Assembly: GCA_045617885.1 (NCBI GenBank)
Contig: JAZLJN010000002.1
Location: forward strand, 10,184 to 74,183
Length of the DNA stretch: 64,000 nt
Direction: 5' to 3'
Source of the DNA: Bacteroidales bacterium
GTDB lineage: Bacteria > Bacteroidota > Bacteroidia > Bacteroidales > UBA3663
Position 1 is the stretch's first letter, and each line of letters begins with the position of its first letter. Below, in pieces: positions 16,815 through 59,428 of the stretch. A program made the translations under genes and the position numbers. The notes under the pieces were generated by a model. The model saw only the letters and a list, made by a program, of their open reading frames with translations. It searched no databases and was not told where the DNA came from.

Positions 16815-17540
16815 ATGGAAAATGGAAAACAAATAAAAGTGTTGACTTTGCAGTTCGATACAGAGATAGCGGCATGGGAGGTTCCGCTTTTTCGTGGAGC
16901 TGTATTATCGAGTATTGGAAAGGATGTTGACATATTATTTCATAATCATGCCGAGGATGAAAAATTTCGTTATTCTTACCCTTTGATCCAATACAAACGT
17001 TTAGGAGGAAAGGCTGCTATCGTTTGCGTGCAAGAGGGTGTGGATAGTATCGGACAGTTCCTTGTGGTTCAGGATTCAACTTTTGTCCTTGGAGACAGGA
17101 CTGTAACCCTTGCCATGCAGAGTGTACGCCCGCAGAATATTCTAATACAGACATGGCAGAGCGATTTTGCTTATCGTTTACAACACTGGTTGCCATTAAA
17201 TAGTAAGAACTATCAAGTATATCAGGAGACGGAATCTCTTTCGGCACGCATTTCTTTGCTTGAAGGAATATTGCGTGGCAATCTTCTCTCGATGTGCAAA
17301 GGACTTGGTATCCATCTGACAGAAGAACTGAAGGTTAGTATCAATTGGCTGTCTAATCCTCAATCAGTCAAGCACAAAGGAATTAGAGTTCTGTCTTTCG
17401 ATGTGAATTTCAGTACCAATTTGAGTATTCCCGATGGCGTAGGTATCGGAAAAAATGCGAGTATTGGTTTTGGAACGGTACGAAAAGGATTAGGAAAGGA
17501 TAATAAAAAACAAGAACATAATGAATCAAATAACGAATAG
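16815..17540 (+). CDS. cas6: CRISPR-associated endoribonuclease Cas6
   Basis: 241 aa. It has the N-terminal LFHNH...FRYSYPLIQYK motif and the C-terminal glycine-rich loop GVGIGKNASIGFGTV typical of Cas6 RAMPs. It is the first gene of the effector operon. Confidence 0.75.
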   Translation: MENGKQIKVLTLQFDTEIAAWEVPLFRGAVLSSIGKDVDILFHNHAEDEKFRYSYPLIQYKRLGGKAAIVCVQEGVDSIGQFLVVQDSTFVLGDRTVTLAMQSVRPQNILIQTWQSDFAYRLQHWLPLNSKNYQVYQETESLSARISLLEGILRGNLLSMCKGLGIHLTEELKVSINWLSNPQSVKHKGIRVLSFDVNFSTNLSIPDGVGIGKNASIGFGTVRKGLGKDNKKQEHNESNNE

Positions 17541-19026
17541 CATGTATGACAAACTTTTTGTAGGAGGTGATTTGTCGGGAATTCAGAAATTCCTTTATAA
17601 TATCACCTCCAAGAAGGCTGCAGCGAGCCTGAAAGGTCGATCTTATACCTTGAGGAAATACATGGAAGATGTCTGCACAAACATGCAACGCTTGCCTATT
17701 GTAGCCGCAATTAAGCCTGAAGAGATTTATTGCTCAGGAGGCAAATTCTATGTAATTGTGCAGAATGCTCCTATGGTGCAAGAAACACTTGTGGAATATT
17801 CACAAAAGGTAAAAAGCAAAATCTGGGAAGATCACCGGGGGCAGCTTGCTATCAATTTCAGCATAGTACCTTTTAGCGAGAACCCTGATAAGAGTATCAA
17901 TGCCAATGGACAGACAAATCAGAATTTAGGATTCTTGTGGCGTTGTGTAAACGAAGACTTCGCTCGTCAGAAGAGTCAGAAGTTCCTGGATCAGATCAAA
18001 GACCATTATGAAGATTTCTTTGAGGTTAGCAAGGTAGGTGGCACTCCAAAAGTCTGTGCTGTAACTGGTGTTGAATCGGACAACTGTGTATCATTCCGAT
18101 ATGGAAAAGAGGATCCTATCTGGGTGCTCCCTTCGGTGAAAGAGCAGATTGAAATAGGAGAAGAATTAAGTCGCAAAGAGGGATCAAAATCATTCGAGGA
18201 TTATGCCAAAATATCAGAGGAAAACAATACCTACATCGGCATTCTGAGAATGGATGTTGATGGATTGGGAAAACTATTTGCAGAAAAACTCAAAACCTTT
18301 GAGAAATACAAAGAGTTTTCCGCCCGATTGGATGCTTATTTCACCAGTCGACCAGAAACAGGATATATCAGCAATCTACAGAAGATTCAGCAAAAAGCTC
18401 TATACAAAGACTATCTTACAATCATATATGCTGGCGGTGATGATATCTTTGCTGTAGGACGATGGGACAAGATCATTGATTTCGCAGCGGAGGTTAGAGA
18501 AAATTTCGTTGAATATGTAAATACAGAAGGTGTCTCAATCTCTGGTGGCGTTGCGATCGTACATCCAAAATTTCCTATTGCAAAGGCTGCAGAAATGGCA
18601 GGTGACGCCGAAGATGCCGCTAAGAACTACAGAGATGGAGAGAAAGATGCATTCTGTATGTTTGGCGAGGTGGTATCTTGGAAGGATGAGTTCGAGTATG
18701 TTGAACAATATAAGAACGAGTTTGTAAAATATATTAGCAACCCATATAATATGCCGCGTAGTATCTTACACAAAATTATGAGTTATGCGGCAATGCATGA
18801 ACGCTATAAAAAAGGGGAATCCCAAAACTGTCAGTACATATGGCATTCTGCATATTATTTGACACGATTTATAGATCGGTTGAATGATAAAAAAGATGCT
18901 GAAGTAATTACCTTCTGTAAAAAACTTCGCGATCAAGAAATGTTCGGCAAAGATGATAATTTACGATTATTATCCATCGCTGCCAGATGTGCAGAATTAA
19001 CATTAAGAATACAATCAAATCTTTAA
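17521..19026 (+). CDS. cas10: Cas10 (Csm1-type) large subunit, short form without an HD nuclease domain
   Basis: 501 aa. It starts directly at the Palm1 motif GGDLSGIQKFLYNI. It also has MDVDGLGKLF and the cyclase motif GGDD (18433-18444, IIYAGGDDIFAVGRW). No H..HD motif is present N-terminally. Confidence 0.85.
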   Translation: MNQITNSMYDKLFVGGDLSGIQKFLYNITSKKAAASLKGRSYTLRKYMEDVCTNMQRLPIVAAIKPEEIYCSGGKFYVIVQNAPMVQETLVEYSQKVKSKIWEDHRGQLAINFSIVPFSENPDKSINANGQTNQNLGFLWRCVNEDFARQKSQKFLDQIKDHYEDFFEVSKVGGTPKVCAVTGVESDNCVSFRYGKEDPIWVLPSVKEQIEIGEELSRKEGSKSFEDYAKISEENNTYIGILRMDVDGLGKLFAEKLKTFEKYKEFSARLDAYFTSRPETGYISNLQKIQQKALYKDYLTIIYAGGDDIFAVGRWDKIIDFAAEVRENFVEYVNTEGVSISGGVAIVHPKFPIAKAAEMAGDAEDAAKNYRDGEKDAFCMFGEVVSWKDEFEYVEQYKNEFVKYISNPYNMPRSILHKIMSYAAMHERYKKGESQNCQYIWHSAYYLTRFIDRLNDKKDAEVITFCKKLRDQEMFGKDDNLRLLSIAARCAELTLRIQSNL

Positions 19027-19032
19027 ATACAT

Positions 19033-19464
19033 ATGAAATATCCGTCTACTGAATTAAAACCAGAGTGGGTTTATGCTCCAATTACTCCAGATATAGTGGA
19101 ATGGTGTAAATCTTTTGGAGAGTTTTTATCACCTGCGTGCCTAACAGACTCAAAAAAACCTCTAACGACATCGCAATTACGCAGATTCTTTGGAGAAGTG
19201 AAAAGAATTAAGATGCAAAAAGTGATTCAAGGAGATGACGTCGCTATGTTGAATCCACAACTTGCATATGCGGTAGGTCGAGATAAAGATAACTTTGGCA
19301 AGAATAAAACAAGGATTGCTGAGTTTCAACAACAACTGAGCAAAGCTATCAGTGCGATTCGATTCGATGAACATTTGGCTCAAGATTACGATCATTTTAT
19401 ACAAATCTTCGAAGCTATTGTTGCATATCATAAATACTATGGTGGAAAAGAGAATACAAAATAA
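19033..19464 (+). CDS. csm2: Type III small subunit Csm2 (Cas11)
   Basis: 143 aa, helical, with LTTSQLRRFFGEVKRI, NPQLAYAVGR and FEAIVAYHKYYGG motifs. It sits between cas10 and csm3. Confidence 0.75.
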   Translation: MKYPSTELKPEWVYAPITPDIVEWCKSFGEFLSPACLTDSKKPLTTSQLRRFFGEVKRIKMQKVIQGDDVAMLNPQLAYAVGRDKDNFGKNKTRIAEFQQQLSKAISAIRFDEHLAQDYDHFIQIFEAIVAYHKYYGGKENTK

Positions 19465-19473
19465 TAATTGACT

Positions 19474-20112
19474 ATGGAAAGATTGATCAAAAAAATAAAG
19501 GTAAATACTACTCTTGAGTTACTTACAGGTCTTCATATTGGAGGAAGTACAGAAAATGTTGAGATTGGTGGCATAGATCGTCCAGTTATCAAAATAGCTG
19601 TACGAGATAATCAACCTTATATTCCAGGTAGTTCAATTAAAGGCAAGATACGTTGTCTTTTGGAACAAGTAAGAGGCGCCGTAGAGGTAGGTAATGATGA
19701 TTCCGTAAATGACTTATTTGGGTTCGCTCAAAAAGATCTTCCATCTAAACTCATTGTTCGCGATAGTTTCCTCTCTTCTGATTCTGTAAAACAATTCCAG
19801 AATTGTGATAATCTAGATATGCCTTTTACAGAAGGTAAATGGGAGAACACTATTGAACGCGTTAAGGGTGTGGCCAAGAATCCACGTTTGATAGAGCGAG
19901 TACCTGCTGGTGCAGTTTTTAATGTTGAGTTTATCATCAATGTATGGGATGATGAAAAGAACTCTGTAAGACTAATGAATATGTTGGAAGAAGGAATCTC
20001 ATTACTTGAAAATGATTATTTAGGCGGCAGCGGCTCAAGAGGATATGGCCAAGTTCGTTTTGGAGAGTTGCAGAAGACTGAACTCTCTGCAGAGAATAAC
20101 TGGAAAGCATAA
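19474..20112 (+). CDS. csm3: Csm3 (Cas7 backbone RAMP, crRNA-guided RNase subunit)
   Basis: LELLTGLHIGGSTENVEIGGIDRPVIK...PYIPGSSIKGKIRCLLE and C-terminal YLGGSGSRGYGQV. The ATG at 19474 is preferred over the TTG at 19468. Confidence 0.9.
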   Translation: MERLIKKIKVNTTLELLTGLHIGGSTENVEIGGIDRPVIKIAVRDNQPYIPGSSIKGKIRCLLEQVRGAVEVGNDDSVNDLFGFAQKDLPSKLIVRDSFLSSDSVKQFQNCDNLDMPFTEGKWENTIERVKGVAKNPRLIERVPAGAVFNVEFIINVWDDEKNSVRLMNMLEEGISLLENDYLGGSGSRGYGQVRFGELQKTELSAENNWKA

Positions 20113-20129
20113 CCATATAAGCAATTATT

Positions 20130-21137
20130 ATGGCAACACTGAATATATGTAAATTGCACTTCTCGTCACCGTTGCATATTGGTGATCAGAAGAACGATGA
20201 TTATGGCATAAGCCTGAAGACCATCTCTTCTGATACGATGTATGCAGCTATGACTGCGGTACTTGCAAAATCAGGTGTCGGCCTTCCTGATGATGGTAAT
20301 CTGGGATTTACAATCAGTAGCCTTTTCCCGTATTATCAAAAGTCATCAGATTCATCATCGGTCTTTTTCTTCCCACAACCTTTGCAGACAAGATTGCCGC
20401 AGCTGAAAGATCTTGGTGTAAGAAAAAAGGTAAAGAAAGTCAAATGGCTCGACACAGGTTATTTTGAAAAGGTGCTGAAAGGAGAACATCTTTTTGAAGA
20501 TTGCGACAGTACGGACATAAAATGCATACATGGTGAGTATCTTTCCGACCAGTTTGTTCCTAACGACTTCATCGGTAGTCAGGTTATTCAGCGAGTTACA
20601 TTACAATCAAGAGTTGGAGAGAAAGACGCTTTGCCTTATTATGTAGATAGAGTGTCTTTTAAGGATTATTCAGGTCTGTACTTCATTGTAGAGGGCGACA
20701 CAGCAATGTTAGATCAAGCATTGGCTTTATTGAGCCTTGAAGGTATAGGTACGGATCGAAACGTCGGTAATGGATTCTTTGACTATGAGATGACGACATT
20801 ATCATTGGATGTCCCTCAGAGATCAGAATATGCTGTATCATTATCGCTATTGATGCCAGAGTCAAAAGAAGAGTTCGAAAAACTGATCGCATCAGATAAG
20901 GTAGCCTATGATATTGAGCGACGAGGTGGGTGGATAACTACTTACCCATTTCAGCGATTGCGAAAGAATGCGATTTATGGATTCACTCCAGGAAGTGTGT
21001 TCTGCAAAGAATCGGACGGACTTCAATCTATTGGCCGCATCGTTGATCTTCGCCCCAATGTAGAATTTACGAGCGAGAAGCTCCACCCTATCTGGCGTTC
21101 TGGCAAGGCTTTATTACTACCTATTATCATTGAGTAA
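20130..21137 (+). CDS. csm4: Csm4 (Cas5-family RAMP)
   Basis: 335 aa with MATLNICKLHFSSPLHIGDQ and SDTMYAAM N-terminal motifs and GIGTDRNVGNGFF glycine-rich loops. Confidence 0.85.
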   Translation: MATLNICKLHFSSPLHIGDQKNDDYGISLKTISSDTMYAAMTAVLAKSGVGLPDDGNLGFTISSLFPYYQKSSDSSSVFFFPQPLQTRLPQLKDLGVRKKVKKVKWLDTGYFEKVLKGEHLFEDCDSTDIKCIHGEYLSDQFVPNDFIGSQVIQRVTLQSRVGEKDALPYYVDRVSFKDYSGLYFIVEGDTAMLDQALALLSLEGIGTDRNVGNGFFDYEMTTLSLDVPQRSEYAVSLSLLMPESKEEFEKLIASDKVAYDIERRGGWITTYPFQRLRKNAIYGFTPGSVFCKESDGLQSIGRIVDLRPNVEFTSEKLHPIWRSGKALLLPIIIE

Positions 21138-21139
21138 TT

Positions 21140-22876
21140 ATGGAAGTCAATAGAAAATACTACATACAGTTTACAGTAGTTACTCCACTTTGTGTTGGAG
21201 CTGGTAACGAAGCAGAATGGGTGAAATGTGCTGACTATGTAATTAAGGACAGGAAGGTTTATGTCCTTGACTTGCATCGTGTAGCAGATTCTGGGATAGA
21301 TATGTCTCAGTTAAGTATTCTTTTTGTCAACCAAGATCATGACGGTATCGTCAAACTTCTTGGCAACAAGATTAAGATTGTTTCTGCCAGCGTCTTCGAT
21401 CTTCCATGTGATACAGATAATAATATCAAGTCTTTTGAACGAAGTCAGCTTCATAATCTTCCTGTAGTTGCTGGCAGTTCTTTGAAGGGAGCAATACGTT
21501 CTGTTTTGTTTCAGTACTTACGTCAGGATGAAACAAAGAATGAATCAGTTTTCGGTACGATGAATGACGGTACGGATTTTATGCGATTCATAAAGGTCGG
21601 AGATATTGAAATGCCAAAGACGGAGTTATATAATTCCAAGATCTTCAATCTGCATACAGAAGATGGTTCTTGGCATGGCGGTTGGAAACATGCTTTGACT
21701 AATGGTACTAAAGACTATTATAGGTCAACAGGCTTTAATTCTCTTTATGAATGTGTTTCACCGAACAAGTCGGGAGTAGGAACAATCATGCTTAGCCCGT
21801 TGCTTTTTAAGAAAGTATTGGAACGTAGTAACACGATACCTTTTGCTGCCCCCAAACAGAAGATCCTTAATGATGATATAAAAACGCTGTTTTCTATTAT
21901 CAATCAGTTTACAAAGCAATATCTCGAAAAGGAGCGTGAATTCTTTGTTCAGTATCCTGCCGATCGGTCGGAACAGATTGTCGAAAGTATTGATCAGCTG
22001 ATGGCATCTATTCCAGCAGATAACTCTTCGTGTCTGCTGAAAATGTCTGCAGGTGTAGGATTCCATGCCATCACAGGTGACTGGATGCACGAATCTTATA
22101 CAGAAGGGATCTTTGATAGAAAAAGAAACAAAGACAATGATACGCTTCCAAAATCCAGAAAAATAGTAGAGACAAAAGATGGTCTCTCATTCATGGGTTT
22201 TGTAAGACTTTCTTCCGTTGACCAAGAGACATACGAAGAACATCTTGACCGAATTATTACTGAGTATAATAGTCGGATGCAAGACGTCCTCAATCAAAAG
22301 GATGCGAAAAAAGCAGCAGCAGAGGCTCAAAGAATTGCTCTTGTAGAAAAAGAGAGGCAGTATAATGTATTGCTAGCGGAGGCTCTTGCTGCAGAACAAT
22401 CGGAAGACTTCATCTTAGCGCTAGACAAAGCTCGTAAAGCTGCTGAATTGTTCCCAGTCAGGAAGGAACCTCAAGAACTCATCTCTCGATCAGAGACTAA
22501 GGCTGCAGAGCAAAAGTTGAGACAGGCTCAGGCTTCAGCAGAGGCGGCAATGGCCAAGATTCGCGAGGAGAAGGCTTCTGGAGGATTATCTGCTCTTTTG
22601 AATGAGAAGTATGAACAGGGTCCGAACGAAGGCAAGTATAAGGTTCTTACTTTTAAGGTCTGTCTGCAAAAGGTCTCTTCTTGGATGAAAGCTGCAGGAG
22701 TGACGACATTGCCAGAAGATCAAACTCCCGCGCTTATCGAAACTGTTGAACGTTTGATTGCCAATCCGGATAAGAAAGAATCCCGCGATATTGAGAATCG
22801 AAAGAGTAGTATCTGGAAGAAGATAGAGGAGCTGCTTTCTTGTCAGCAGGCGGATGAGTTGTATGCTAAGAAATAA
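21140..22876 (+). CDS. csm5: Csm5 (Cas7-like RAMP) fused to a C-terminal extension of about 215 aa (helical A/E/K-rich)
   Basis: 578 aa. The RAMP core carries TPLCVGAG and PVVAGSSLKGAIRSVLF and ends near ...LSFMGFVRL (about residue 360). Residues 361-578 (22220-22873) are coiled-coil-like plus a small terminal domain. Confidence 0.8.
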   Translation: MEVNRKYYIQFTVVTPLCVGAGNEAEWVKCADYVIKDRKVYVLDLHRVADSGIDMSQLSILFVNQDHDGIVKLLGNKIKIVSASVFDLPCDTDNNIKSFERSQLHNLPVVAGSSLKGAIRSVLFQYLRQDETKNESVFGTMNDGTDFMRFIKVGDIEMPKTELYNSKIFNLHTEDGSWHGGWKHALTNGTKDYYRSTGFNSLYECVSPNKSGVGTIMLSPLLFKKVLERSNTIPFAAPKQKILNDDIKTLFSIINQFTKQYLEKEREFFVQYPADRSEQIVESIDQLMASIPADNSSCLLKMSAGVGFHAITGDWMHESYTEGIFDRKRNKDNDTLPKSRKIVETKDGLSFMGFVRLSSVDQETYEEHLDRIITEYNSRMQDVLNQKDAKKAAAEAQRIALVEKERQYNVLLAEALAAEQSEDFILALDKARKAAELFPVRKEPQELISRSETKAAEQKLRQAQASAEAAMAKIREEKASGGLSALLNEKYEQGPNEGKYKVLTFKVCLQKVSSWMKAAGVTTLPEDQTPALIETVERLIANPDKKESRDIENRKSSIWKKIEELLSCQQADELYAKK

Positions 22877-22961
22877 GATAAATCTGTATCCTGTGTCTTT
22901 GAATCGCAGGATACAGATTTTGGAAATTTGAATAGCAGAATACTATTTGCTTTCTTATTCT

Positions 22962-23133
22962 TTTGTGAAATAAATGTATATGTATATTTGCCCACTCATT
23001 TTGATAATAAGAAAGTAGCATTTTGCTACAATTTCCCAAAATGATAGGTACATAATTAGTCTTATTAAGTTCTCGGATTTCTTTGAGATAGTCAATGTTT
23101 TGATTAGAAATCAATGTTTTATGTGTTTCGGCT
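22962..23133 (+). promoter_or_regulatory. Promoter and leader of CRISPR array 1
   Basis: TTTG at 22962-22965 and TATATTTG at 22983-22990. The last 119 nt (23015-23133) match the array-2 leader at 115 of 119 positions. The distance from the -7 box to the first repeat is the same as for array 2. Confidence 0.7.
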
Positions 23134-24198
23134 GTCCGAGACTATGTTCCATTAAAATAAGGATTAAGACTGATGTCAAGGAGGCTCTCGTACTCAAACC
23201 TCTTTTTGGTCCGAGACTATGTTCCATTAAAATAAGGATTAAGACAGAATTAAAGTGAAACGATGTGATAAGAAAGATGCACGTCCGAGACTATGTTCCA
23301 TTAAAATAAGGATTAAGACGGACGAAGTTCCTTCATAGCCTCTACTACAAGTAAGGTCCGAGACTATGTTCCATTAAAATAAGGATTAAGACGATTGGGG
23401 TGTAGATAACTGTTGTTTCCATAATGCGTCCGAGACTATGTTCCATTAAAATAAGGATTAAGACCGTGGCAAAACGTCTTTCTGCATCATGATAACGTTG
23501 TCCGAGACTATGTTCCATTAAAATAAGGATTAAGACCAGCAGTCGGAGCAACGCCCGACACAATAGCGTTTGCGTCCGAGACTATGTTCCATTAAAATAA
23601 GGATTAAGACATCACTGTGTAAGCAGAAACGAAGAAAGGAGCGATGTCGTCCGAGACCATGTTCCATTACAATAAGGATTAGGACATCTTTAACGAACTT
23701 TGTTGCAGCAGCTTTGTCAGTCCGAGACTATGTTCCATTACAATAAGGATTAAGACTAGCGCCAAAGACGCTTGAGCTGATAGACATGGCAGTCCGAGAC
23801 TATGTTCCATTACAATAAGGATTAAGACACAATAACAGCAATAAACATGAGCATTAAAGATTTCAGTCCGAGACTATGTTCCATTACAATAAGGATTAAG
23901 ACGTGGAAACAGCCCTTGCTGTTTGACTGACCTACAGCGTCCGAGACCATGTTCCATTACAATAAGGATTAAGACAACTTTGCTGTTGTATAATCTCGAC
24001 CTTCGATGCTGTTGCAAATGTCCGAGACCATGTTCCATTACAATAAGGATTAAGACCAGAAAACCAGAGTAAACACATTGCGACGATATTTCGTCCGAGA
24101 CCATGTTCCATTACAATAAGGATTAAGACAGAATAGTGACTGCTCGCATCTTCTTGTCCTTTAACTGGTTCATGTTCCATTAAACCAAAGATAATTCT
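23134..24198 (+). CRISPR. CRISPR array 1: 14 full 37-nt repeats plus one degenerate terminal repeat
   Basis: Repeat consensus is GTCCGAGAC[T/C]ATGTTCCATTA[A/C]AATAAGGATTAAGAC. Repeat starts are 23134, 23209, 23283, 23356, 23428, 23500, 23574, 23649, 23720, 23792, 23866, 23939, 24020 and 24093. Spacer lengths are 38, 37, 36, 35, 35, 37, 38, 34, 35, 37, 36, 44 and 36 nt. The decayed repeat at 24162-24198 keeps the core CATGTTCCATTAAA. The 3' end ATTAAGAC resembles the 8-nt crRNA tag of Cas6-processed repeats. Confidence 0.97.
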
Positions 24199-24213
24199 TA
24201 ATGCCAGAAAGAT

Positions 24214-25200
24214 ATGGATTTAGTACTTAATACATTTGGGACATCTTTGAATAGAGATAACCAAGGCTTTGTCATCACCAATCAGGACGGAAGACAACGT
24301 ATTCCGGCCCAAGGTATCAGGAGCATTCAAATAGGTAAGGGGGCACAGATAACCAGTGATGCGGTGATGTTGGCTATCGACAATGAAATAGACATTGTTT
24401 TTACCGATCGCTCAGGTATGCCCAAGGGAAGAATCTGGAGTCCACAATATGGATCAATCTCCACTATCCGTAAGGGACAGTTGGCATTCACTATGTGCTC
24501 CGATGCATTAACTTGGATAAAGGAAATCTTAGTTCAAAAAATCTCAAATCAGCAAGCTTTGCTTTTGATGCTTCCTGAACCACAAGATCAATATGTATCT
24601 CTAAAGCAGCAGCATGCCATTGAGAAACTAGAGAATTTCCGGACAAAGATAAGTCAAATCAATGAACCCCAGTTGGTATGTGATGAGGCTTCAACACTAC
24701 GAGGTTTGGAGGGAATGGCATCGAAGTTATACTTTGAGACCATCAATTTATTTTTGCCAGAAGAATATCGTTATGAGGGTCGCTCCCAACATCCCGCAAT
24801 GGATGCTTTTAACGCCTTCCTGAATTATGGTTACGGCATACTGTATTCCAAGATTGAGGGAGAATTGATCAAGGCTGGGGTAGATCCCTACATCGGTATT
24901 TTGCATCGTGATGACTACAACCGCCCGGTACTTGTATTTGATGTGATTGAAATCTATCGTATCTGGGTGGATTATGTAGTATGTAATCTGATGCTACAGA
25001 AAGTAGTGACCGACGAGTTCTACTCCGTGCAGGAAGATGGATCATATTGGCTGGAGACACTGGGTAGAAGAGTATTGATTCAATCGCTTAATGACTATTT
25101 AGAGGAAATTGTCAAAGTTAAAGGGTTAAGCCGATCGCGTAATACACAGATACAACTGTATGCCCAGGATCTGGCACAGCGGTTCAAGAAATATCAATAG
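24214..25200 (+). CDS. cas1: CRISPR integrase Cas1
   Basis: 328 aa with the conserved block HPAMDAFNAFLNYGYGILYSKIEGELIKAGVDPYIGILHRDDYNRPVLVFDVIEIYR. Confidence 0.95.
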   Translation: MDLVLNTFGTSLNRDNQGFVITNQDGRQRIPAQGIRSIQIGKGAQITSDAVMLAIDNEIDIVFTDRSGMPKGRIWSPQYGSISTIRKGQLAFTMCSDALTWIKEILVQKISNQQALLLMLPEPQDQYVSLKQQHAIEKLENFRTKISQINEPQLVCDEASTLRGLEGMASKLYFETINLFLPEEYRYEGRSQHPAMDAFNAFLNYGYGILYSKIEGELIKAGVDPYIGILHRDDYNRPVLVFDVIEIYRIWVDYVVCNLMLQKVVTDEFYSVQEDGSYWLETLGRRVLIQSLNDYLEEIVKVKGLSRSRNTQIQLYAQDLAQRFKKYQ

Positions 25201-25256
25201 ATACAGTCTATAAGATTAGAAGGCATTTTGCACATTATTAATATATATATATAGGT

Positions 25257-26288
25257 ATGTTATCAGCAGGAAGTAATATTCAGTCATTGACGGATGCTTT
25301 GAAACCTATCAGTGTGGAGCATCTGTATCAGAGCCTGGTGTCTCCAAAAGCAGATGTTGAGGCAAAAATCAGGCAATTGAGAATCGTCAGGCAAATCGAT
25401 GCCAAACTCTATGCGCGCAATAAGAAACTGCTGCCCTTCTTTGTGTGTGCTACGTTCAATCCTGCCATACGTCGCACAGAGAATTTTGCCTATACCTCTT
25501 ACTTTGTAGTCGATCTTGATAATCTGGCAGAGCGTCAGTTGGACCTACAGACTTTACGCAACTGGTTAGAAACGGATCCTCGTGTACTACTTTCTTTTAT
25601 ATCTCCCAGTGAAGATGGATTGAAAGTGTTGTTCCGACTCAAAGAGCGCTGCTATGATGCTGGGCTTTATAAGGTATTTTATCAGGAATTTGTACGCAGA
25701 TTCTCACAACAATATCATTTGGAGCAAGTCGTTGACAGCAAGACATGTGACGTATGCAGGGCTTGCTTTATAAGCATTGATACCAATGCATATTATAATC
25801 AGGATGCAGAACCCGTAGATATCAACGATTACTTGAAAGCAGATGATGCCACGGCTTTGTTTGATATGAAGCACGAGCAGGATAGAGCTAACAAAGAAGT
25901 GGATAAACTGCAGAAGGAGGAAAAAGCAGCTGGACCAGCAGAACCTGCTGATGATGAGCTGTCACATATCAAGGAATTGCTTCAGATGCAGCGCCAACGT
26001 ATGCCTCAGATACCAAGATTGCCTATTTATGTCCCTGAACGATTGGACCAGATTATGGATGGATTATGCTCATTCGTTGATGACCAGGGAATGAAGATAT
26101 ATGATATACAGAATATTCAATATGGTAAGAAGATACGGGGTAAATTGGGAAATCGGCTGGCGGAAGTAAATCTTTTCTATGGAAAAAAGGGATTCCGTAT
26201 TGTTCAGACGGTAAAAGGAATTCTTTCTCCTGAATTAAATGAGATATTGGCTGAATTGATACAGATATATCTACGGTTAAACACCTGA
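25257..26288 (+). CDS. Primase-polymerase (AEP/Prim-Pol, BT4734/VirE-N-like); CRISPR-associated Prim-Pol (CAPP)-like
   Basis: 343 aa encoded between cas1 and cas2. It has AEP motif I YFVVDLD (DLD at 25512-25520), a motif II-like SPSEDGLKVLF, and a motif III-like DVCRACFISIDTNAYYN. Confidence 0.65.
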   Translation: MLSAGSNIQSLTDALKPISVEHLYQSLVSPKADVEAKIRQLRIVRQIDAKLYARNKKLLPFFVCATFNPAIRRTENFAYTSYFVVDLDNLAERQLDLQTLRNWLETDPRVLLSFISPSEDGLKVLFRLKERCYDAGLYKVFYQEFVRRFSQQYHLEQVVDSKTCDVCRACFISIDTNAYYNQDAEPVDINDYLKADDATALFDMKHEQDRANKEVDKLQKEEKAAGPAEPADDELSHIKELLQMQRQRMPQIPRLPIYVPERLDQIMDGLCSFVDDQGMKIYDIQNIQYGKKIRGKLGNRLAEVNLFYGKKGFRIVQTVKGILSPELNEILAELIQIYLRLNT

Positions 26289-26293
26289 TCCCG

Positions 26294-26779
26294 ATGCCAC
26301 GCAAACCCAAACCACCGCTTTCTGCGGCAGAGATACTTGAAAAGATAAGAGCAGCAGGATTGTCTGATACGAATGTAATACGAGATAATACGCTGCCTGG
26401 TGCTTCTCAGTTAGAGAGCCTTGATGTCAGACTCCAGCACATTCTTAGTCTGACAACCAACAGACAATCTAAACATAATGGTATGTTATTCTTTGTAATG
26501 TATGATATAGAAAGCAATAAGGTACGTAACCTGGTGGCAAAATACTTGATCCGCCAGGGATGCTTTCGGATTCAGCATTCTATTTATCTGGCCGATATGC
26601 CATGTGACAAATGTGACCAAATTAAGGAAGATCTGGCTCAGGTGCAAGCTGCCTATGATAATCATGATAGTATTCTGGTGGTACCCATTTCTACAGACTA
26701 CCTCCGGTCTATGCGTGTCATCGGACGTGCTTTAGATGTAGAGGTAATCATGCATTCCCAGAACACATTGTTCTTTTAA
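26294..26779 (+). CDS. cas2: Cas2 with an N-terminal extension of about 60 aa
   Basis: 161 aa. The Cas2 core begins at MLFFVMYDIESNKVRNLVAKYLIRQGCFRIQHSIYLAD. Residues 1-62 (MPRKPKPPLSAAEILEKIRAAGL...) are extra. Confidence 0.85.
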   Translation: MPRKPKPPLSAAEILEKIRAAGLSDTNVIRDNTLPGASQLESLDVRLQHILSLTTNRQSKHNGMLFFVMYDIESNKVRNLVAKYLIRQGCFRIQHSIYLADMPCDKCDQIKEDLAQVQAAYDNHDSILVVPISTDYLRSMRVIGRALDVEVIMHSQNTLFF

Positions 26780-26792
26780 TAGCTTTCAGTTT

Positions 26793-28310
26793 ATGTCACG
26801 CACCGATATCAAAAAACTTCAGCAACAAGGGCGTCTTGAAGAGGCTCTTGAGCTGGCAATGAACCAATATACACTGAATCCTAATGCTCTATGGGCAAGG
26901 ACCGATTTGGCATGGGTTTATGACGCGATGTGTAAGAAATCTGCAGCCGAAGGTAAAGTTGAGACGTTTGAAAATGCTTTCCGTCCTATTGCCAATTTAG
27001 GGCTGCTTACGACTGATCAAATGCTCAGCGAAACGCTCTGCTGGAGGTTCCGCTCACTTATGGCTACTTGTAGCGCAAAAATGGAAGCTTTGGATAAACC
27101 TGCGTTTGCTCAGCGGGTATGGGATATGGTTGGCTTGCTGGGAGCCTCACATCCATCAGAAGCCTACTCCGTTTTATGCAAAGCTTTTTATCATTTGCGG
27201 GACAACTGGATGGGCTTCATAGATTTCATGGATTGGTGGGGATGGCAGAACTTCAGACCAGAGGATTACCAGCAAGAGAAGCTGCCTAATGGGAAAACAA
27301 TGCCTATGTCATTGGTCGAAGGCTGTCATATCGCCTATGCAAAACTATTGTTACAGATGGGTGATAAAGATAGAATGTCAGCTTTCTTGCCTCGCCTTGA
27401 GTCTCTTGGAAATTCATATCCAAATATGCTTTATCCAGGTTACTATACAGGTAAGCTTCTGGTCGCAATAGGAGGAGATAAGAAAGCAATGCTTCAGTCT
27501 GTTTTACCATTTGTCAGGCAGAAGTCCGGAGAGTTTTGGGCTTGGCAACTTTTGGCTGAGATGGAGCAAGATGACGAATCTTTTTATATTGCCTGCCTGC
27601 TTAGAGCCGTTAACTGCAAGACAAAAGATGCCTTTTTGGTCAAAATCCTTTATTTGTTGACTAACCTGTCGCTTGCAAAACAAGATTTTGTGGCTGCCCG
27701 AACCTTTTTGTCCCGATATGTGTCATCAAAAATGGATTCTCAAAGCCGGATGCCTTCAGAAGTGTACCATTGGATGAATGAGGCTTGGTATAAAGATAGT
27801 AAAGTTCGGCAAACATCAAGTATTCTCCAACTGGACTATATGCAGATAACAGATGAACTTTTATTTGCTGATATGCCAGAGCACCCCTTATGTATAACTC
27901 ATATAATCAGTGAGGCAAGAATAGCAATGGTTGTGTATGGATATCAGAAAAGCGGACGCATCAGACTGCCTAAATCGATGAAACAAATAAATGTCGGAAC
28001 TTGTCTGCTGGCTCGCATAAAGGAGCCGGTGCCATCAAGCAATAACCTTACAACCTATTCTTTAAGGCAAGTAAGATGGAATGAATTGCCACCTACTACA
28101 TTTTTACGAACAATCGAAGGGAAGATTACTTCCAACCAAAGTAAAACTGCATTCTTCGTTAAATTTGGAAAAGAGTTCGCTTTCTTGCCAAAGTATTTGT
28201 ATAAAAACAAAGAGCTCAATGTGGATGAAAAAATCACTGCACAAATAGTTTATGACTATCAAAAGAACAAAGCATGCTGGTCCTGGCGGTGTATTTCAAT
28301 CAAATTTTAA
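26793..28310 (+). CDS. Uncharacterised 505-aa protein in the adaptation operon. The N-terminal region is TPR-like and helical; the C-terminal region is beta-rich and possibly OB/S1-like.
   Basis: It starts 13 nt after the cas2 stop on the same strand. The N-terminus reads GRLEEALELAMNQYTLNPNALWARTDLAWVYDAM and is helical-repeat-like. The C-terminus reads RIAMVVYGYQKSGRIRLP and GKITSNQSKTAFFVKFGKEFAFLPKYL. I recognised no catalytic motif. Confidence 0.5.
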   Translation: MSRTDIKKLQQQGRLEEALELAMNQYTLNPNALWARTDLAWVYDAMCKKSAAEGKVETFENAFRPIANLGLLTTDQMLSETLCWRFRSLMATCSAKMEALDKPAFAQRVWDMVGLLGASHPSEAYSVLCKAFYHLRDNWMGFIDFMDWWGWQNFRPEDYQQEKLPNGKTMPMSLVEGCHIAYAKLLLQMGDKDRMSAFLPRLESLGNSYPNMLYPGYYTGKLLVAIGGDKKAMLQSVLPFVRQKSGEFWAWQLLAEMEQDDESFYIACLLRAVNCKTKDAFLVKILYLLTNLSLAKQDFVAARTFLSRYVSSKMDSQSRMPSEVYHWMNEAWYKDSKVRQTSSILQLDYMQITDELLFADMPEHPLCITHIISEARIAMVVYGYQKSGRIRLPKSMKQINVGTCLLARIKEPVPSSNNLTTYSLRQVRWNELPPTTFLRTIEGKITSNQSKTAFFVKFGKEFAFLPKYLYKNKELNVDEKITAQIVYDYQKNKACWSWRCISIKF

Positions 28311-28380
28311 CTATTTCAATGACAAAAGCTACATAATTTCCACTTTATAATTACTAGATACTATTTTTCACTTCATATTA

Positions 28381-28555
28381 TTTGGTGAATGAAAAAAGAA
28401 TATGTATCTTTGTCCCACCTAATAATCATTGGTAATGTAGCATTTTGCTACAATTTCCCAAAATGATAGGTACATAATTAGTCTTATTTAGTTCTCGGAT
28501 TTCTTTGAGATAGTCAATGTTTTGATTAGAAATCAGAGTTTTATGTATTTCGGCT
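28381..28555 (+). promoter_or_regulatory. Promoter and leader of CRISPR array 2 (a duplicate of the array-1 unit)
   Basis: TTTG at 28381-28384 and TATCTTTG at 28405-28412. The 119-nt conserved leader spans 28437-28555. Confidence 0.7.
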
Positions 28556-29396
28556 GTCCGAGACCATGTTCCATTAAAATAAGGATTAAGACACGTTGTA
28601 AGCATTGTACGAAGTTCACTTTTCTTGTGTCCGAGACCATGTTCCATTAAAATAAGGATTAAGACCATTGCGGTTGAACCCAACGAGGATTCCAGTAATT
28701 GTCCGAGACCATGTTCCATTAAAATAAGGATTAAGACGTTCTTCTCGATGATGGCGAGGCTGCTCTCGGTGGTCCGAGACCATGTTCCATTAAAATAAGG
28801 ATTAAGACTCCATATAGTATGGAGAACCTCCTTGTTCTCCTTGTAAAGTCGTCCGAGACCATGTTCCATTAAAATAAGGATTAAGACCTGTAAGTTCTTC
28901 TACGGGCGTGTTATTATGATTCTCGTCCGAGACCATGTTCCATTAAAATAAGGATTAAGACCCTGTCTTGTTTTTTCGCGTGGCTGGGAACTGAGAAGTT
29001 GTCCGAGACCATGTTCCATTAAAATAAGGATTAAGACTTACATCCTTTGTTCTGGAAGAAATACTCTGTGTGCTCGTCCGAGACCATGTTCCATTAAAAT
29101 AAGGATTAAGACTTTTTGTGCTAGAACTTTACTGCCAAACTTGCGGTTGGAGTCCGAGACCATGTTCCATTACAATAAGGATTAAGACCGCCTGATCTGT
29201 TACGATTTCGCGAATGTTATCATGTCCGAGACCATGTTCTATTAAAATAAGGATTAAGACACTATTGGTGAAAGTACCCAACTTAACCATTGTACCGTCC
29301 GAGACCATGTTCCATTACAATAAGGATTAAGACGCTTGCCCTTGTTCCATGCACGATAGCAGCGGTCGGTCTCGGACCAACACTCGGTCCGAGACC
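28556..29396 (+). CRISPR. CRISPR array 2: 11 full 37-nt repeats plus a truncated terminal repeat fragment
   Basis: It uses the same repeat family. Starts are 28556, 28629, 28701, 28772, 28851, 28925, 29001, 29076, 29152, 29224 and 29297. Spacer lengths are 36, 35, 34, 42, 37, 39, 38, 39, 35 and 36 nt. The fragment GTCCGAGACC at 29387-29396 follows 53 nt of decayed sequence. Confidence 0.97.
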
Positions 29397-29484
29397 TAAA
29401 GCCTAAAGAGAATTGCCAAATAGAGAGACAAAATGAAGCATTATTCAGAAAGTGATAGATAATAATTAGATTTTTTGACCTTTT

Positions 29485-29516
29485 ATTTGGAATAGAAGTG
29501 TAAATACTTTATATTT
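29485..29516 (+). promoter_or_regulatory. Promoter of the helicase-csx1-csx1-csx20-like accessory operon
   Basis: TTTG at 29485-29488 and TATATTTG at 29509-29516, with a 20-nt spacer. It lies 67 nt upstream of the ATG at 29583. An 8-bp hairpin (ATGCATCG/CGATGCAT) sits in the 5' UTR. Confidence 0.5.
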
Positions 29517-29582
29517 GCGCCTCTATGCATCGTGCATCTCCCGATGCATATTTGAGATACACTTTGCCAATACAGAAAAATC

Positions 29583-31007
29583 ATGGATAACGAAATACAG
29601 CTGACGCATTCCCAAGACCGCGCATTCAAGATGATGATTGGTTTTGTGGAGAATCCGAACCAACGAATCTTCATCCTGAAAGGATATGCTGGTACAGGCA
29701 AGACTACACTGATGAAATGCTTGGTTAACGAGTTGATCTGCCAAAGTAAAGAAGTGAGACTACTTGCCTCTACAGGACGTGCTGCCAAGATTCTTAGCAA
29801 TGCCACAGGGATGGAGGCACACACCATACACAGCCAGGTCTATACTTTCAATGGTTTGAACCAAGACTTGGATAAACTCACAGAGGAACAAGGGAAGACA
29901 GGCTTAATGGCAGGAGAGCAGTTACTACTGGATTTCTCAATGGCTGAAGCTGAAGATGACGAGGAGATAATATTCCTGATAGACGAGTCCTCTATGGTGT
30001 CAGACCAAGAGCAGAAGGTGGTCACCCAAGCCAGATTCGGAAGTGGCAGGGTACTGAAAGACTTGATTGATTGCTATCCTGCGGGAAAGTTTATCTTTGT
30101 AGGGGACCCATGCCAGCTGCCTCCTATTACTCAACCATTCTCGCCTGCTTTATCTGCTGAATATTTTAAGTCGTCTTACGAAGAGGAGGTGCTGTGTGCA
30201 GAATTGACCGAAATCATGCGGCAGCAAAAGGATAATGACCTTATACAGTCTGCTCAGCGTATGCGTCAGTTGTATGCCAATCCTCCTCAAGTAAAGTGGG
30301 CAAAATTCCCTCTAAAAGGTTATAGAAACATACATATCCTATCTAGTCAAACTGAACTGCTTAGCCTTTATATTGATGACATTAAGCAAAATGGATTTAA
30401 CTCCGCTACCCTTTTAGGGTTCACTAACAAACAATGTAATGATCTGACACGGCTGATTCGTCCATCTCTTGGTATCGTTTCCATGACCATCTCGGTGGGC
30501 GACCTATTGCTGGTTACCCAAAATAATTACATCTCTGGTCTGATGAATGGCGATCTGGTAGTGGTCAAGGCGATTGGCGCGATGGAACAGCGAGCTGGAT
30601 TACACTTCCAGACAGTAAGCGTCGAGGAGTTGTTCACTAAAAAAGTATATGAACAGCTGCTCGTTCTGGAGATACTCTATGCCAACGAAACCAATCTGAC
30701 GCAGGAACAGCAGCGAGAATTAATGTTAGAATTCTATTTCAGGATGAAAGCTAATGGCATCAAGCAAAAGAGCAAGGCTTTTAATCAGATGATGATAAAA
30801 GACCCATACTTGAATGCTCTTCGTACGGTTTATGGTTTTGCTTTGACCTGCCACAAGTCTCAAGGTGGCGAGTGGGACAAAATCTACCTTGACATCCCCC
30901 GTTCATTCCCTTTACAGGCCAAGCCATACGTATATCAGTGGATGTACACCGCCATGACTAGAGCCAAACAAGACTTGTTTGTAGTTAATGATTTTTGGAT
31001 ATATTAA
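29583..31007 (+). CDS. RecD/TraA-like SF1 DNA helicase (AAA_30 + SH3-like + UvrD_C-type)
   Basis: 474 aa with Walker A GYAGTGKTT, Walker B FLIDESSMV, GDPCQLPPI, an SH3-like segment VGDLLLVTQNNYISGLMNGDLVVV, and motifs V/VI ALTCHKSQGGEW and YTAMTRAK. Confidence 0.85.
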   Translation: MDNEIQLTHSQDRAFKMMIGFVENPNQRIFILKGYAGTGKTTLMKCLVNELICQSKEVRLLASTGRAAKILSNATGMEAHTIHSQVYTFNGLNQDLDKLTEEQGKTGLMAGEQLLLDFSMAEAEDDEEIIFLIDESSMVSDQEQKVVTQARFGSGRVLKDLIDCYPAGKFIFVGDPCQLPPITQPFSPALSAEYFKSSYEEEVLCAELTEIMRQQKDNDLIQSAQRMRQLYANPPQVKWAKFPLKGYRNIHILSSQTELLSLYIDDIKQNGFNSATLLGFTNKQCNDLTRLIRPSLGIVSMTISVGDLLLVTQNNYISGLMNGDLVVVKAIGAMEQRAGLHFQTVSVEELFTKKVYEQLLVLEILYANETNLTQEQQRELMLEFYFRMKANGIKQKSKAFNQMMIKDPYLNALRTVYGFALTCHKSQGGEWDKIYLDIPRSFPLQAKPYVYQWMYTAMTRAKQDLFVVNDFWIY

Positions 31008-32266
31008 TAATTGGGAACACTGTGAGTAAGGTTTTAGTTTCGTTTTTGGGAACAGGTTCTAATAGCAGAGGATTAGGTGTGAGAGAATATCATAAGGCTC
31101 GCTACCGATTTGAAAATGGAGTAGAGATTGACACCTCTTTTGTTGCAGATGCATTGTTCCGTTTTTATGACATTGACAAGTTAATTCTGCTGGGTACTCC
31201 CAAATCCATGTGGGAACAGGTATATGATGTATTTTGCGACAACAGGAACATACCCAAAAACGAGGACTATTGGCTGGAATTAGCTACCTCTTGTGATAAA
31301 GCCAATGCCAACAGTCCTTTGCATATTCCGAATAAGGAATTATTGGAATCTGCCATAGGAGCAGATTCTCATGTTGTATTAATTCATTATGGCCTCAATG
31401 AACAAGAATTGCAGAATAATGCATCGATAATTCTTGGGATTGAAGATTTTTTGAACACAGGTGATGAGCTATATTTGGACATTACACATGCGTTCCGTTC
31501 GTTGCCATTATATCTAATGAATTTGATTGTTTATCTTCAGAATGTCAGTGCAAAAAAGGTTAAGCTAGCCAATATATCGTATGGCATGCTTGACGTAAAC
31601 AAAGAACTTGGATATGCACCTGTGATTAATCTCTCCGGTATAGCAGAGATCAATGAATGGATAGTTGGCGCATATACATTCCGTCAGTTCGGCAATGGTT
31701 ATAAAATAGCAGAATTGATGAAAAGAAGAGGTGAAAAAAATATGTCGAATAAACTCACCAAATTTTCAGACATGCTTAACCTTAATCATTTGGATGGCAT
31801 CCGGAAGCAGACGCAAGAACTGTCAGCAGTTAAGAATGATAGCCATGGCGCTATTGCAGATCATATTATTCCTGGAGTAATCAATGGCTTTATAGATTAC
31901 TTCCCTAACAACATGCGTCAATCAACCTTTCAACGAAGATTGGCTCAGTGGCATTATAATCATCAGAACTACTCGTCGGCATTTATTGCGCTGGTGGAAG
32001 CAATTATAACTTACGTGTGTGAAGAGCTAGAATTTGACTGGGATCTGATGGAAAAACGAGAACTAGCTAAACGAGTATTACGCCGTCAAGAACCTTCGCT
32101 GATGAGAAACGTGAGGGAGTTTAGCACTGTAAGCAGCTGGTTTTCTAAAGTAAATAGGATCAGAATCAGTGTAGCACATTCTGTTACAAATTCCAAGAAC
32201 AATAGTGAAATGATTTCTTTACTGGATGAAGCCCTGATCTGTTTAAGAATGATAATCAAAGGATAA
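30995..32266 (+). CDS. csx1: CARF-HEPN protein (Csx1/Csm6 family, DxTHG-type), paralog A
   Basis: CARF motifs VLVSFLGTG and LYLDITHAFRSLP. The C-terminal HEPN-like motif is NRIRISVAH (32156-32179, Rx4-6H). The start may instead be the GTG at 31022 (VSKVLVSFLG). Confidence 0.75.
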   Translation: MDILIIGNTVSKVLVSFLGTGSNSRGLGVREYHKARYRFENGVEIDTSFVADALFRFYDIDKLILLGTPKSMWEQVYDVFCDNRNIPKNEDYWLELATSCDKANANSPLHIPNKELLESAIGADSHVVLIHYGLNEQELQNNASIILGIEDFLNTGDELYLDITHAFRSLPLYLMNLIVYLQNVSAKKVKLANISYGMLDVNKELGYAPVINLSGIAEINEWIVGAYTFRQFGNGYKIAELMKRRGEKNMSNKLTKFSDMLNLNHLDGIRKQTQELSAVKNDSHGAIADHIIPGVINGFIDYFPNNMRQSTFQRRLAQWHYNHQNYSSAFIALVEAIITYVCEELEFDWDLMEKRELAKRVLRRQEPSLMRNVREFSTVSSWFSKVNRIRISVAHSVTNSKNNSEMISLLDEALICLRMIIKG

Positions 32267-32281
32267 TATTATAGATTAGAT

Positions 32282-33583: not shown

Positions 33584-33929
33584 TCTTACCAATCATCCAA
33601 CAGACACATGGACTGAGCTACAACTACATGAGGCGTGCAAATACGGAGAGATTGTAGATTTACCTTTTCCTGACGTTTCGGACAAAGCGACCCATGAAGA
33701 TGTAAAAGATTTAGTCAAGCAGTTATTTGATAAGATAGTCAAACTTTCTTCAAATAAAGCATGTACAGTTCATGTCATGGGAGAGATGACTTTTACCTAT
33801 GCCATGGTCAATATGCTGAAGGCTCACGGCTATAAGTGTGTGGCTTCTACATCGAAACGAATAGTTGAAATGTTGCCGGATGATTCGAAGAATGTGAGAT
33901 TTGAATTCTGCCAGTTCAGAGAATATTAA
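33573..33929 (+). CDS. Small CRISPR-linked protein, possibly Csx20 family (minimal Rossmann/CARF-like)
   Basis: About 118 aa from the ATG at 33573 (MLINLTNHPTDTWTELQLHEA...). It overlaps the stop of csx1 paralog B and is the last gene of the operon. The family assignment is from memory of the LNLT.H..(T/S)..Q N-terminal signature. Confidence 0.45.
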   Translation: MLINLTNHPTDTWTELQLHEACKYGEIVDLPFPDVSDKATHEDVKDLVKQLFDKIVKLSSNKACTVHVMGEMTFTYAMVNMLKAHGYKCVASTSKRIVEMLPDDSKNVRFEFCQFREY

Positions 33930-34017: not shown

Positions 34018-34023
34018 TGTATA

Positions 34024-34348
34024 TTTACGAGTCGTGAAATGGACGCCAACGGTCTTGGCGTGGATTTAAAGGTTGTGAAATGGACGCCAAGAGTCTTGGC
34101 ACGCATTTACGAGTCGTGAAATGGACGCCAACAAGTCTTGGCGTGCAATCCAAGACCTCGGAACGGTTGTCTGATGACCTTGGCGCACAATCCTAGGCCT
34201 CCGGACATTTGATATACGGTTTTGGCAGACAATCCTAGGCCTCGGGACCTTTGTCAGATTCCCTTGGCGTGCAATCCTACGTCTCTGGACCTTCGTCTAA
34301 TGCCCTTGGCAGACAATCCTAACACTCCGGAGGATATTCTCTATCTGG
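34024..34348. repeat. Degenerate tandem repeat block with a period of about 42 bp (3 A-type plus 5 B-type units)
   Basis: A units read TTTACGAGTCGTGAAATGGACGCCAA..TCTTGGCGTG, each with a GCCAAG/CTTGGC hairpin. B units read CCTTGGCG(T/C)(G/A)CAATCCTAGGCCTC(C/G)GGAC.... The block lies between the convergent csx20-like and queA genes. Confidence 0.8.
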
Positions 34349-59397: not shown

Positions 59398-59428
59398 ATT
59401 CCTCATTGACAATTGAGCCTCTTGGAGG

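Follow-up and report, generated by a model that had tools for sequence, protein, structure and literature searches.

Introduction

CRISPR-associated primase-polymerases (CAPPs) were divided by Zabrady et al. [quoted passage not shown] CAPP_B was seeded on DbCAPP, a 337-aa protein of a Dysgonamonadaceae bacterium (WP_101486965.1) whose gene sits between cas1 and cas2 (PMC8211822). DbCAPP is a DNA-dependent DNA polymerase and also a de novo primase, initiating with GTP on 3'-XCC/T-5' templates, and its activity is lost upon the D86A/D88A exchange (PMC8211822). It was further described that DbCas1 binds DbCAPP directly and also binds the RecD-like helicase of the same operon, and the authors proposed that CAPPs act in prespacer synthesis and/or in gap filling after integration (PMC8211822). 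Members of the AEP superfamily carry three motifs, hhhDhD/E (motif I), sxH (motif II) and hD/E (motif III) (PMC10345425), and PDB 7P9J is cited for a CAPP_A protein (PMC10345425). TOTE systems ('TPR, OB, TBP, Effector') were described as conflict systems by Aravind, Iyer and Burroughs (2022; cited in PMC12458937).

Here we analyze a CAPP_B gene in a 64,000-nucleotide stretch of a Bacteroidales contig (JAZLJN010000002.1), referred to as the window. The gene is a run-of-the-mill representative of a family for which a model and biochemical data exist, and its identification was already known; as an identification this adds little to a dedicated NCBI model, the biochemical paper of 2021 and more than 1000 database relatives. 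What is added here is the predicted TBP-like identity of the C-terminal region of CAPP_B, the absence of this tail from the helicase of the locus, and an N-terminal extension of Cas2 that is found throughout the family.

Results

A CAPP_B gene in a type III-A locus

An initial annotation had placed a 343-aa reading frame with the motifs YFVVDLD, SPSEDGLKVLF and DVCRACFISID between cas1 and cas2. In the open-reading-frame listing of the window this frame was recovered with an ATG start at exactly 25257-26288 on the plus strand, and the three motifs lie at aa 82-88, 116-126 and 165-175 of its translation. The strand opposite the frame is closed by many stops. The frame is not a product of chance, since 1230 protein clusters match it at E<=1e-5 and the mean column identity over 27 homologues is 64%. 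The gene begins 56 nt after the end of cas1 and ends 5 nt before cas2, which in turn is followed after 13 nt by a 505-aa reading frame.

All genes of the locus are encoded on the plus strand in the order cas6b, cas10, csm2, csm3, csm4, csm5, leader 1, array 1, cas1, CAPP, cas2, the 505-aa gene, leader 2, array 2, a RecD-like helicase and two CARF-HEPN Csx1 paralogues (Table 1). The extended Cas2, the 505-aa frame and the SF1 helicase that had been listed as neighbours are thus all present. Cas10 has 501 aa, with GGDD at aa 305 and no HD motif. Leaders 1 and 2 share 96% identity in their last 100 nt, in each of them the TAnnTTTG motif lies about 150 nt ahead of the first repeat, and the 23 spacers of both arrays are all unique. 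The GC content of the island is 40%, compared with 49.5% in both flanks. Searches of the 23 spacers against GenBank phages gave no match, nor did a search of two leader-proximal spacers against IMG/VR. No RNA runs carrying the locus were found; only two runs, of DNA or unknown type, hold 9% of the sampled words. Taken together, these features describe a type III-A system whose two arrays have near-identical leaders.

Table 1. Features of the CAPP_B locus (window coordinates in nt, residue numbers where indicated).
Feature	Position	Strand	Basis or detail
Type III-A effector genes cas6b, cas10, csm2, csm3, csm4, csm5 (578 aa)	16815..22876	+	Pfam, NCBIfam
Leader 1	22877..23133	+	Bacteroidetes-type TAnnTTTG motif at 22983
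Array 1, 14 intact 37-nt repeats (23134-24129) and a decayed terminal repeat (~24162-24198); 13 spacers of 34-44 nt	23134..24198	+	
cas1, 328 aa	24214..25200	+	Pfam Cas_Cas1 E 1.2e-64; TIGR00287 225.8 bits
CAPP_B gene (CRISPR-associated primase-polymerase type B), 343 aa	25257..26288	+	NCBIfam NF040562; 1230 homologous clusters
AEP / Prim-Pol catalytic core, BT4734-like_N, aa 57-180	25425..25796	+	PF08800; invariant columns; AF2 model
Motif II-like stretch	S116-K123	+	Invariant columns
C-terminal TBP-like domain (predicted), aa 257-343, helix / four strands / helix	26025..26285	+	Foldseek, Pfam, hhalign
cas2, 161 aa	26294..26779	+	TIGR01573 E 1e-12 / Pfam Cas2, aa 64-161 only
505-aa TPR / DUF7017 / S1-CSD protein (TOTE TPR-OB subunit; PADLOC PDC-M16B)	26793..28310	+	
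Leader 2	28311..28555	+	TAnnTTTG motif at 28405
Array 2, 11 repeats, 10 spacers of 34-42 nt	28556..29333	+	
RecD-like SF1 helicase, 474 aa, without TBP-TOTE tail	29583..31007	+	Pfam AAA_30 / PIF1 / UvrD_C_2
Two CARF-HEPN (Csx1/Csm6-type) paralogues, 423 and 433 aa	30995..33583	+	PADLOC CARF_HEPN / Csx1, E 4e-122 and 1e-98

Family assignment and synteny

Profile searches against PF08800 and the NCBI CAPP models, suggested in the initial annotation as a check, both returned significant matches. The equivalog model NF040562.1 (PrimPol_Db), which has a curated cutoff of 200, gave a score of 395.4 bits and was matched at full length, with aa 2-338 aligned to model positions 1-334 of 335; among the CAPP models, the window protein matches this type B model only. 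Pfam PF08800 (BT4734-like_N) matched aa 57-180 with E 5.3e-18, in line with the BT4734/VirE-N type Prim-Pol that had been proposed, and the PADLOC model for the CRISPR-associated 'PrimPol' matched as well. A search of 5.8 billion protein clusters yielded the 1230 relatives mentioned above, the nearest being 84% identical. Several relatives are named 'CRISPR-associated primase-polymerase type B', while older entries are called 'virulence protein E'. The family is therefore not 'rarely annotated' as had been stated, since a dedicated NCBI model exists and several relatives already bear the corresponding name; the biochemical description of 2021 named in the initial annotation is that of Zabrady et al. 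(PMC8211822). Searches of PDB chains with the protein sequence and the family profile returned nothing meaningful, so CAPP_B is without a solved relative that is detectable by sequence. We regard it as virtually certain that the window protein is a CRISPR-associated primase-polymerase of the CAPP_B class.

The genomic context of related genes was investigated in a scan with one genome per species, which yielded 143 loci encoding a relative, the closest of them in Bacteroidales metagenome-assembled genomes, and the best 80 of the 143 were examined. In 78 of these 80 Bacteroidales loci CAPP_B is immediately preceded by cas1, and in 79 it is immediately followed by cas2; where cas1 or cas2 does not adjoin, the end of the contig cuts it off. 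The RecD-like helicase gene is usually found directly upstream of cas1, whereas in the window it lies downstream, past the second CRISPR array, which makes the order seen here a rearranged variant. Of the 33 loci that have at least 6 kb of upstream and at least 3 kb of downstream sequence, 22 contain a RecD-like helicase near CAPP_B, 24 contain Csx1-type genes and 9 encode a relative of the 505-aa protein. The membership in the CAPP family and the position between cas1 and cas2 that the initial annotation had claimed were thus both borne out.

This synteny also bears on the origin of the gene. PF08800 is typical of the VirE-type primase-helicases of Bacteroidetes mobile elements, and together with the older database names and the AT-rich composition of the island it could point to a VirE / BT4734-like primase that serves the replication of a mobile element and was inserted into the CRISPR locus by chance. 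However, neither a helicase nor a VirE or PriCT domain is present in the 343 aa, the gene is not surrounded by an integrase or by repeat boundaries, the score comes close to double the cutoff of an equivalog model specific to CRISPR, and the order cas1-CAPP-cas2 is kept in 78 of the 80 species-level loci. A mobile-element primase is effectively refuted by this synteny, and we assign it next to no probability.

The catalytic core carries an invariant DxD motif

The catalytic core was analyzed by aligning 27 homologues with 49-84% identity to the window protein. Residues D86, D88, S116, P117, D120, G121, K123, D160, D165, R168 and D175 are invariant in all of them. The DxD of motif I corresponds to D86/D88 (nt 25512-25520), and these aspartates have the numbering of the residues that were mutated in DbCAPP, so that the catalytic acids suggested by the initial annotation do align with motif I. 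In an AlphaFold2 (AF2) model of the protein (mean pLDDT 83.6), which consists of an N-terminal alpha/beta domain, a linker and a C-terminal domain, FVVDLD (aa 83-88) forms the end of a strand comprising aa 77-88, and it fits the AEP pattern hhhDhD/E. Foldseek comparison of the modelled N-terminal domain with the PDB retrieved the PolDom of M. tuberculosis LigD (probability 0.99-1.0), Prim-PolC and poxvirus D5; PDB 7P9J was absent from the top 50 matches of the window model.

No invariant histidine was found across the 27-homologue alignment, and the canonical sxH of motif II is not present. From the conserved columns, motif II appears to be replaced by S/G118-x-D120-G121-L-K123, with a lysine in place of the canonical histidine. 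Candidates for motif III are D160 (in VVD), D165 and D175, all of which are invariant, and D160 would be the best fit to the 'hD' pattern. The stretch DVCRACFISID, which had been put forward as a primase motif, does cover the invariant D165 and D175 but leaves out D160.

The family-wide loss of the motif II histidine might be taken to mean that the Prim-Pol is catalytically dead and is retained solely for a structural role in the Cas1-Cas2 complex. Yet DbCAPP, a member of the same equivalog family, has both primase and polymerase activity (PMC8211822), and the DxD together with several other acidic and basic residues is invariant. A dead enzyme is accordingly rejected as very improbable. By analogy to DbCAPP, primase and polymerase activity as well as binding to Cas1 are predicted for the window protein.

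The C-terminal domain is predicted to be TBP-like

In the AF2 model a long helical linker (aa 198-247) joins the core to the C-terminal domain. The architecture is otherwise simple: within 343 aa only PF08800 and a sub-threshold match to TBP-TOTE were found, and no TPR, RT or helicase domain is fused to the protein. TBP-TOTE was the sole Pfam match of the C-terminal 89 aa (17.6 bits versus a cutoff of 27, E 0.0028), and it matched 8 of 27 CAPP_B homologues at E<=0.01, with a best E of 1.6e-6. Structural comparison by Foldseek aligned the domain to the TBP-like domains of E. coli RnlA over 80-92 columns (probability 1.0, rmsd 2.9-4.5). The N-terminal domains of RnlA are TBP-like and its TBP1 domain is required for substrate binding (PMC8266594).

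Profile comparisons link the domain to TOTE helicases in both directions. An alignment of CAPP C-terminal domains matched the TBP-TOTE tails of four helicases in hhalign with 93.5% probability (E 2.3e-7). When all reading frames of the CAPP_B loci were searched with an HMM made from these four tails, about 60 CAPP proteins were recovered, and two of the TOTE helicases were retrieved by the CAPP-domain HMM at E 3.4e-4. On the strength of these profile and fold matches, the C-terminal domain of CAPP_B is predicted to have a TBP-like fold that is homologous to the TBP-TOTE tail of TOTE/PDC-M16 helicases. Most likely it serves as an adaptor that docks nucleic acids or a partner.

When the profile of the domain was searched against 1.84 billion representatives, 380 proteins were found, and the best 150 of these 380 are all CAPP_B-like except for one protein (P0211), a 772-aa Prim-Pol-TBP-TPR fusion that is encoded between cas1 and cas2 on a metagenomic contig. 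Homology of the tail of this fusion to the 505-aa family, as a TPR-CSD part, was considered but not supported, as the tail had no Pfam match and hhalign returned a probability of 0.4% (E 0.16). It is treated here only as a natural CAPP_B-TPR fusion, and nothing beyond TPR is claimed for it.

The neighbours include TOTE-related proteins and an extended Cas2

The 505-aa protein, which the initial annotation had called unknown, matched the PADLOC model PDC-M16B over its full length with E 4.7e-107. In Pfam it matched DUF7017 (E 2.5e-29) and TPR_19, and S1CSD-TOTE-2 scored 26.4 bits, just below the cutoff of 27. Its profile matches identify it as the TPR-OB protein of TOTE/PDC-M16B. The best PADLOC model for the helicase of the window was PDC-M16A (E 4e-119), although only positions 9-485 of the 721 in this model were aligned. 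Judged by sequence, this helicase is a RecD-like relative of PDC-M16A that lacks the TBP domain, and RecD-like is the type of partner that was published as binding DbCas1. RecD-like reading frames measure 475-525 aa in 42 of the CAPP_B loci. Three relatives of the 505-aa protein that stand alone (from Hymenobacter, Kaistella and a metagenome) are each encoded next to a RecD-like helicase of 608-736 aa that ends in a Pfam TBP-TOTE domain. Four CAPP_B loci (L048, L057, L066 and L077) harbor a full-length helicase of 676-710 aa beside the TPR-OB gene, and the TBP tail was confirmed on it in L048, L057 and L066 but not in L077. Since about two thirds of the CAPP_B loci have no TPR-OB gene nearby, the TBP-like tail of the Prim-Pol cannot depend on a TPR-OB partner everywhere.

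The relation to TOTE raises the question of what the Prim-Pol acts upon. With a TBP-TOTE-like tail, with PDC-M16A- and PDC-M16B-type neighbours and with helicase and TPR-OB pairs in the four loci named above, it could mainly be the effector of a TOTE-like innate defence module, made up of a TPR-OB sensor, a RecD helicase and the TBP-tagged Prim-Pol, that only shares an operon with cas1-cas2, and its DNA synthesis would then act on invaders directly, for instance by aberrant priming on phage DNA, rather than in the making of spacers. Against this, cas1 and cas2 flank the gene wherever the 80 loci allow an assessment and no CAPP_B locus free of cas genes was seen among them, the TPR-OB gene is missing from about two thirds of loci, DbCAPP binds Cas1 directly (PMC8211822), and the catalytic domain has no match to Pfam AEP-TOTE. 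We consider such an effector role to be unlikely.

Cas2 of the window has 63 aa before its core, which starts at M64. This N-terminal extension comprises a basic MPRKxKPPLS tail, a helix (aa 11-20), a disordered linker and a second helix (aa 43-56). In the AF2 model of Cas2 the second helix packs on the core, and the extension forms no separate globular domain. The Cas2 reading frame is 150-170 aa long in 76 of 79 CAPP_B loci, and tblastn alignments begin at residues 1-10 of the window Cas2 in 74 of the 79. These lengths and alignment starts demonstrate that the N-terminal extension is a trait of the whole family.

Discussion

The preferred reading of the locus is that CAPP_B takes part in adaptation. 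CAPP_B is predicted to be co-transcribed with cas1, cas2 and the TPR-OB gene. The RecD-like helicase would provide single-stranded DNA of an invader and/or the TPR-OB protein would hold it, and CAPP, docked on Cas1-Cas2, would prime and copy this DNA into double-stranded prespacers. Alternatively or in addition, CAPP may fill gaps and duplicate the repeat after integration. Cas1-Cas2 could then put the spacers into either array, the leaders being near-identical. The TBP-like tail, the same module as on the stand-alone TOTE/PDC-M16 helicases, may be the docking or nucleic-acid-binding part. We hold the reading as a whole, that is, an AEP core, a helical linker and a TBP-like tail, co-transcription within a type III-A locus and this mechanism, to be likely, and we think that CAPP_B probably has a genuine role in spacer acquisition. 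The 'expanded adaptation machine' that the initial annotation had suggested is plausible, and such a machine was proposed in print for CAPP, Cas1, Cas2 and RecD.

Several parts of TOTE systems, or of the PADLOC candidate PDC-M16, are found in the window locus, namely the TPR-DUF7017-S1/CSD protein, the RecD-like helicase and a predicted TBP-like domain. While the TBP domain sits on the tail of the helicase in stand-alone TOTE systems, the predicted TBP-like domain of the window is placed on the Prim-Pol, and the TOTE genes are interleaved with cas1, cas2 and the CRISPR array. The canonical TOTE layout, a helicase-TBP gene beside a TPR-OB gene, is not seen here, as the helicase has no TBP tail and array 2 separates it from the TPR-OB gene. 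One may tentatively propose that CAPP_B is a rewired TOTE effector, in which the TBP adaptor was transferred from the RecD-like helicase to a BT4734-type Prim-Pol and the set was taken over by Cas1-Cas2 of Bacteroidales type III-A systems to select and build prespacers; we think it somewhat more probable that this was not the case. The rewired set would consist of a TBP-tagged Prim-Pol, a TBP-less RecD and, in one third of the loci, the TPR-OB protein. If this proposal were true, the choice of what enters the memory of the adaptive system would fall to the sensor of an innate conflict system, and the two would be physically connected by the TBP-like domain.

The TBP-like tail and the universal extension of Cas2 offer concrete handles on the recruitment of the Prim-Pol. 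The window holds a clean and complete CAPP_B neighbourhood in one 17-kb island, with two arrays, duplicated leaders, a Cas10 without HD, two Csx1, RecD and the TPR-OB protein, and this island would be a convenient construct for asking if the uptake of spacers in vivo requires a CAPP.

Among the described systems, DbCAPP resembles the window protein in length (337 versus 343 aa), and both combine an AEP domain of the VirE-N/BT4734 type with a small C-terminal region. They have in common D86/D88, the position between cas1 and cas2, a type III locus, a Bacteroidetes host and a RecD-like helicase in the operon. The species differ, and DbCAPP is compared here by its published description, typical members of the family being 45-54% identical to the window protein. 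The TPR-OB gene of the window directly follows cas2, an arrangement that only about one third of CAPP_B loci have. CAPP_A, known from Marinitoga piezophila and Marinitoga sp. 1137, is like CAPP_B a Cas1-binding, GTP-initiated DNA primase and polymerase with a proposed role in adaptation. CAPP_A proteins have fusions to TPR, RT or helicase domains and a PriCT-like CTD, whereas the window protein falls to the type B model. With the VirE/BT4734-like primase-helicases of Bacteroidetes mobile elements it shares the family of its AEP catalytic domain (PF08800), but unlike these it carries no helicase domain and resides in a fixed CRISPR context.

Effector genes and origin of the CRISPR island

Cas10 and Csm5 of the type III-A effector module were analyzed by motif inspection and profile matches, respectively. 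Motif inspection of the Cas10 sequence located GGDD at residue 305 and no HD motif in the 501 residues, a combination from which a cyclase-only Cas10, partnered with two Csx1 effectors, is predicted. Matches of Csm5 to the Csm5 and RAMP profiles ended within ~130-290 residues of the N terminus, so that a long C-terminal part is covered by neither profile and has no assignment. The GC content of the entire island (16815-33929) is 40% vs 49.5% in each flank, which is consistent with horizontal acquisition. Two short tandem arrays lie beyond the island; their units are GC-rich and related (…GGCGCC…/…GGACGCCAA…).

Coordinates of features in the window and in loci from other genomes or metagenomic contigs encoding relatives of the CRISPR-associated primase-polymerase type B (CAPP_B)
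Feature	Location	Description
Cas10 gene	window 17521-19026	product 501 aa only
Csm5 gene	window 21140-22876	product 578 aa
CRISPR leaders (two)	window 22877-23133; 28311-28555	duplicates of each other
Spacers of both arrays	window 23171-24092; 28593-29296	n=23, 34-44 nt
147-aa ORF	window 28426-28869 (-)	wholly over leader 2 and array 2
Short tandem arrays	window 34023-34321; 59428-59572	period 41-42 nt, outside CRISPR island
P0211 gene	L086 3177-5495	natural CAPP_B fusion: Prim-Pol, TBP-like domain, TPR-containing C-terminal region
RecD-like helicase, full-length	L048 975-3008; L057 4800-6830; L066 11523-13553; L077 5155-7287	CAPP_B loci

CRISPR leaders and spacers

The last 100 nt of the two leaders share 96% identity, and each leader carries a Bacteroidetes-type TAnnTTTG motif (22983 and 28405), which was not found in the 84 nt separating array 1 from cas1. 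The 147-aa ORF had no match in a family search and is almost certainly spurious. All 23 spacers are unique, and a search of GenBank phages matched none of them. For the two newest spacers IMG/VR was searched as well, with no exact 30-nt match.

CAPP_B loci in other genomes

Nine CAPP_B loci of typical Bacteroidales type (L063, L064, L029, L051, L065, L069, L072, L058 and L060) were found under the labels Firmicutes, Methanomethylophilaceae, Lachnospiraceae, Oscillibacter or Spirochaetaceae, and the hit tables of L063 and L064 are identical. Such non-Bacteroidales labels most likely reflect MAG binning errors rather than cross-phylum transfer.

In L086 the gene of P0211, a 772-aa metagenomic protein with a TPR-containing region of ~430 aa, is flanked by cas1 and a 158-aa cas2, with a RecD-like gene (532 aa) upstream. 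By eye the P0211 tail appeared cold-shock-like, an identity supported by no profile.

The full-length RecD-like helicases of L048, L057, L066 and L077 (676-710 aa) each adjoin a TPR-OB gene. The helicase-tail HMM confirmed the TBP-TOTE tail in the first three and did not confirm it in L077. All four loci harbor an apparently complete TOTE/PDC-M16 pair beside cas1-CAPP-cas2.
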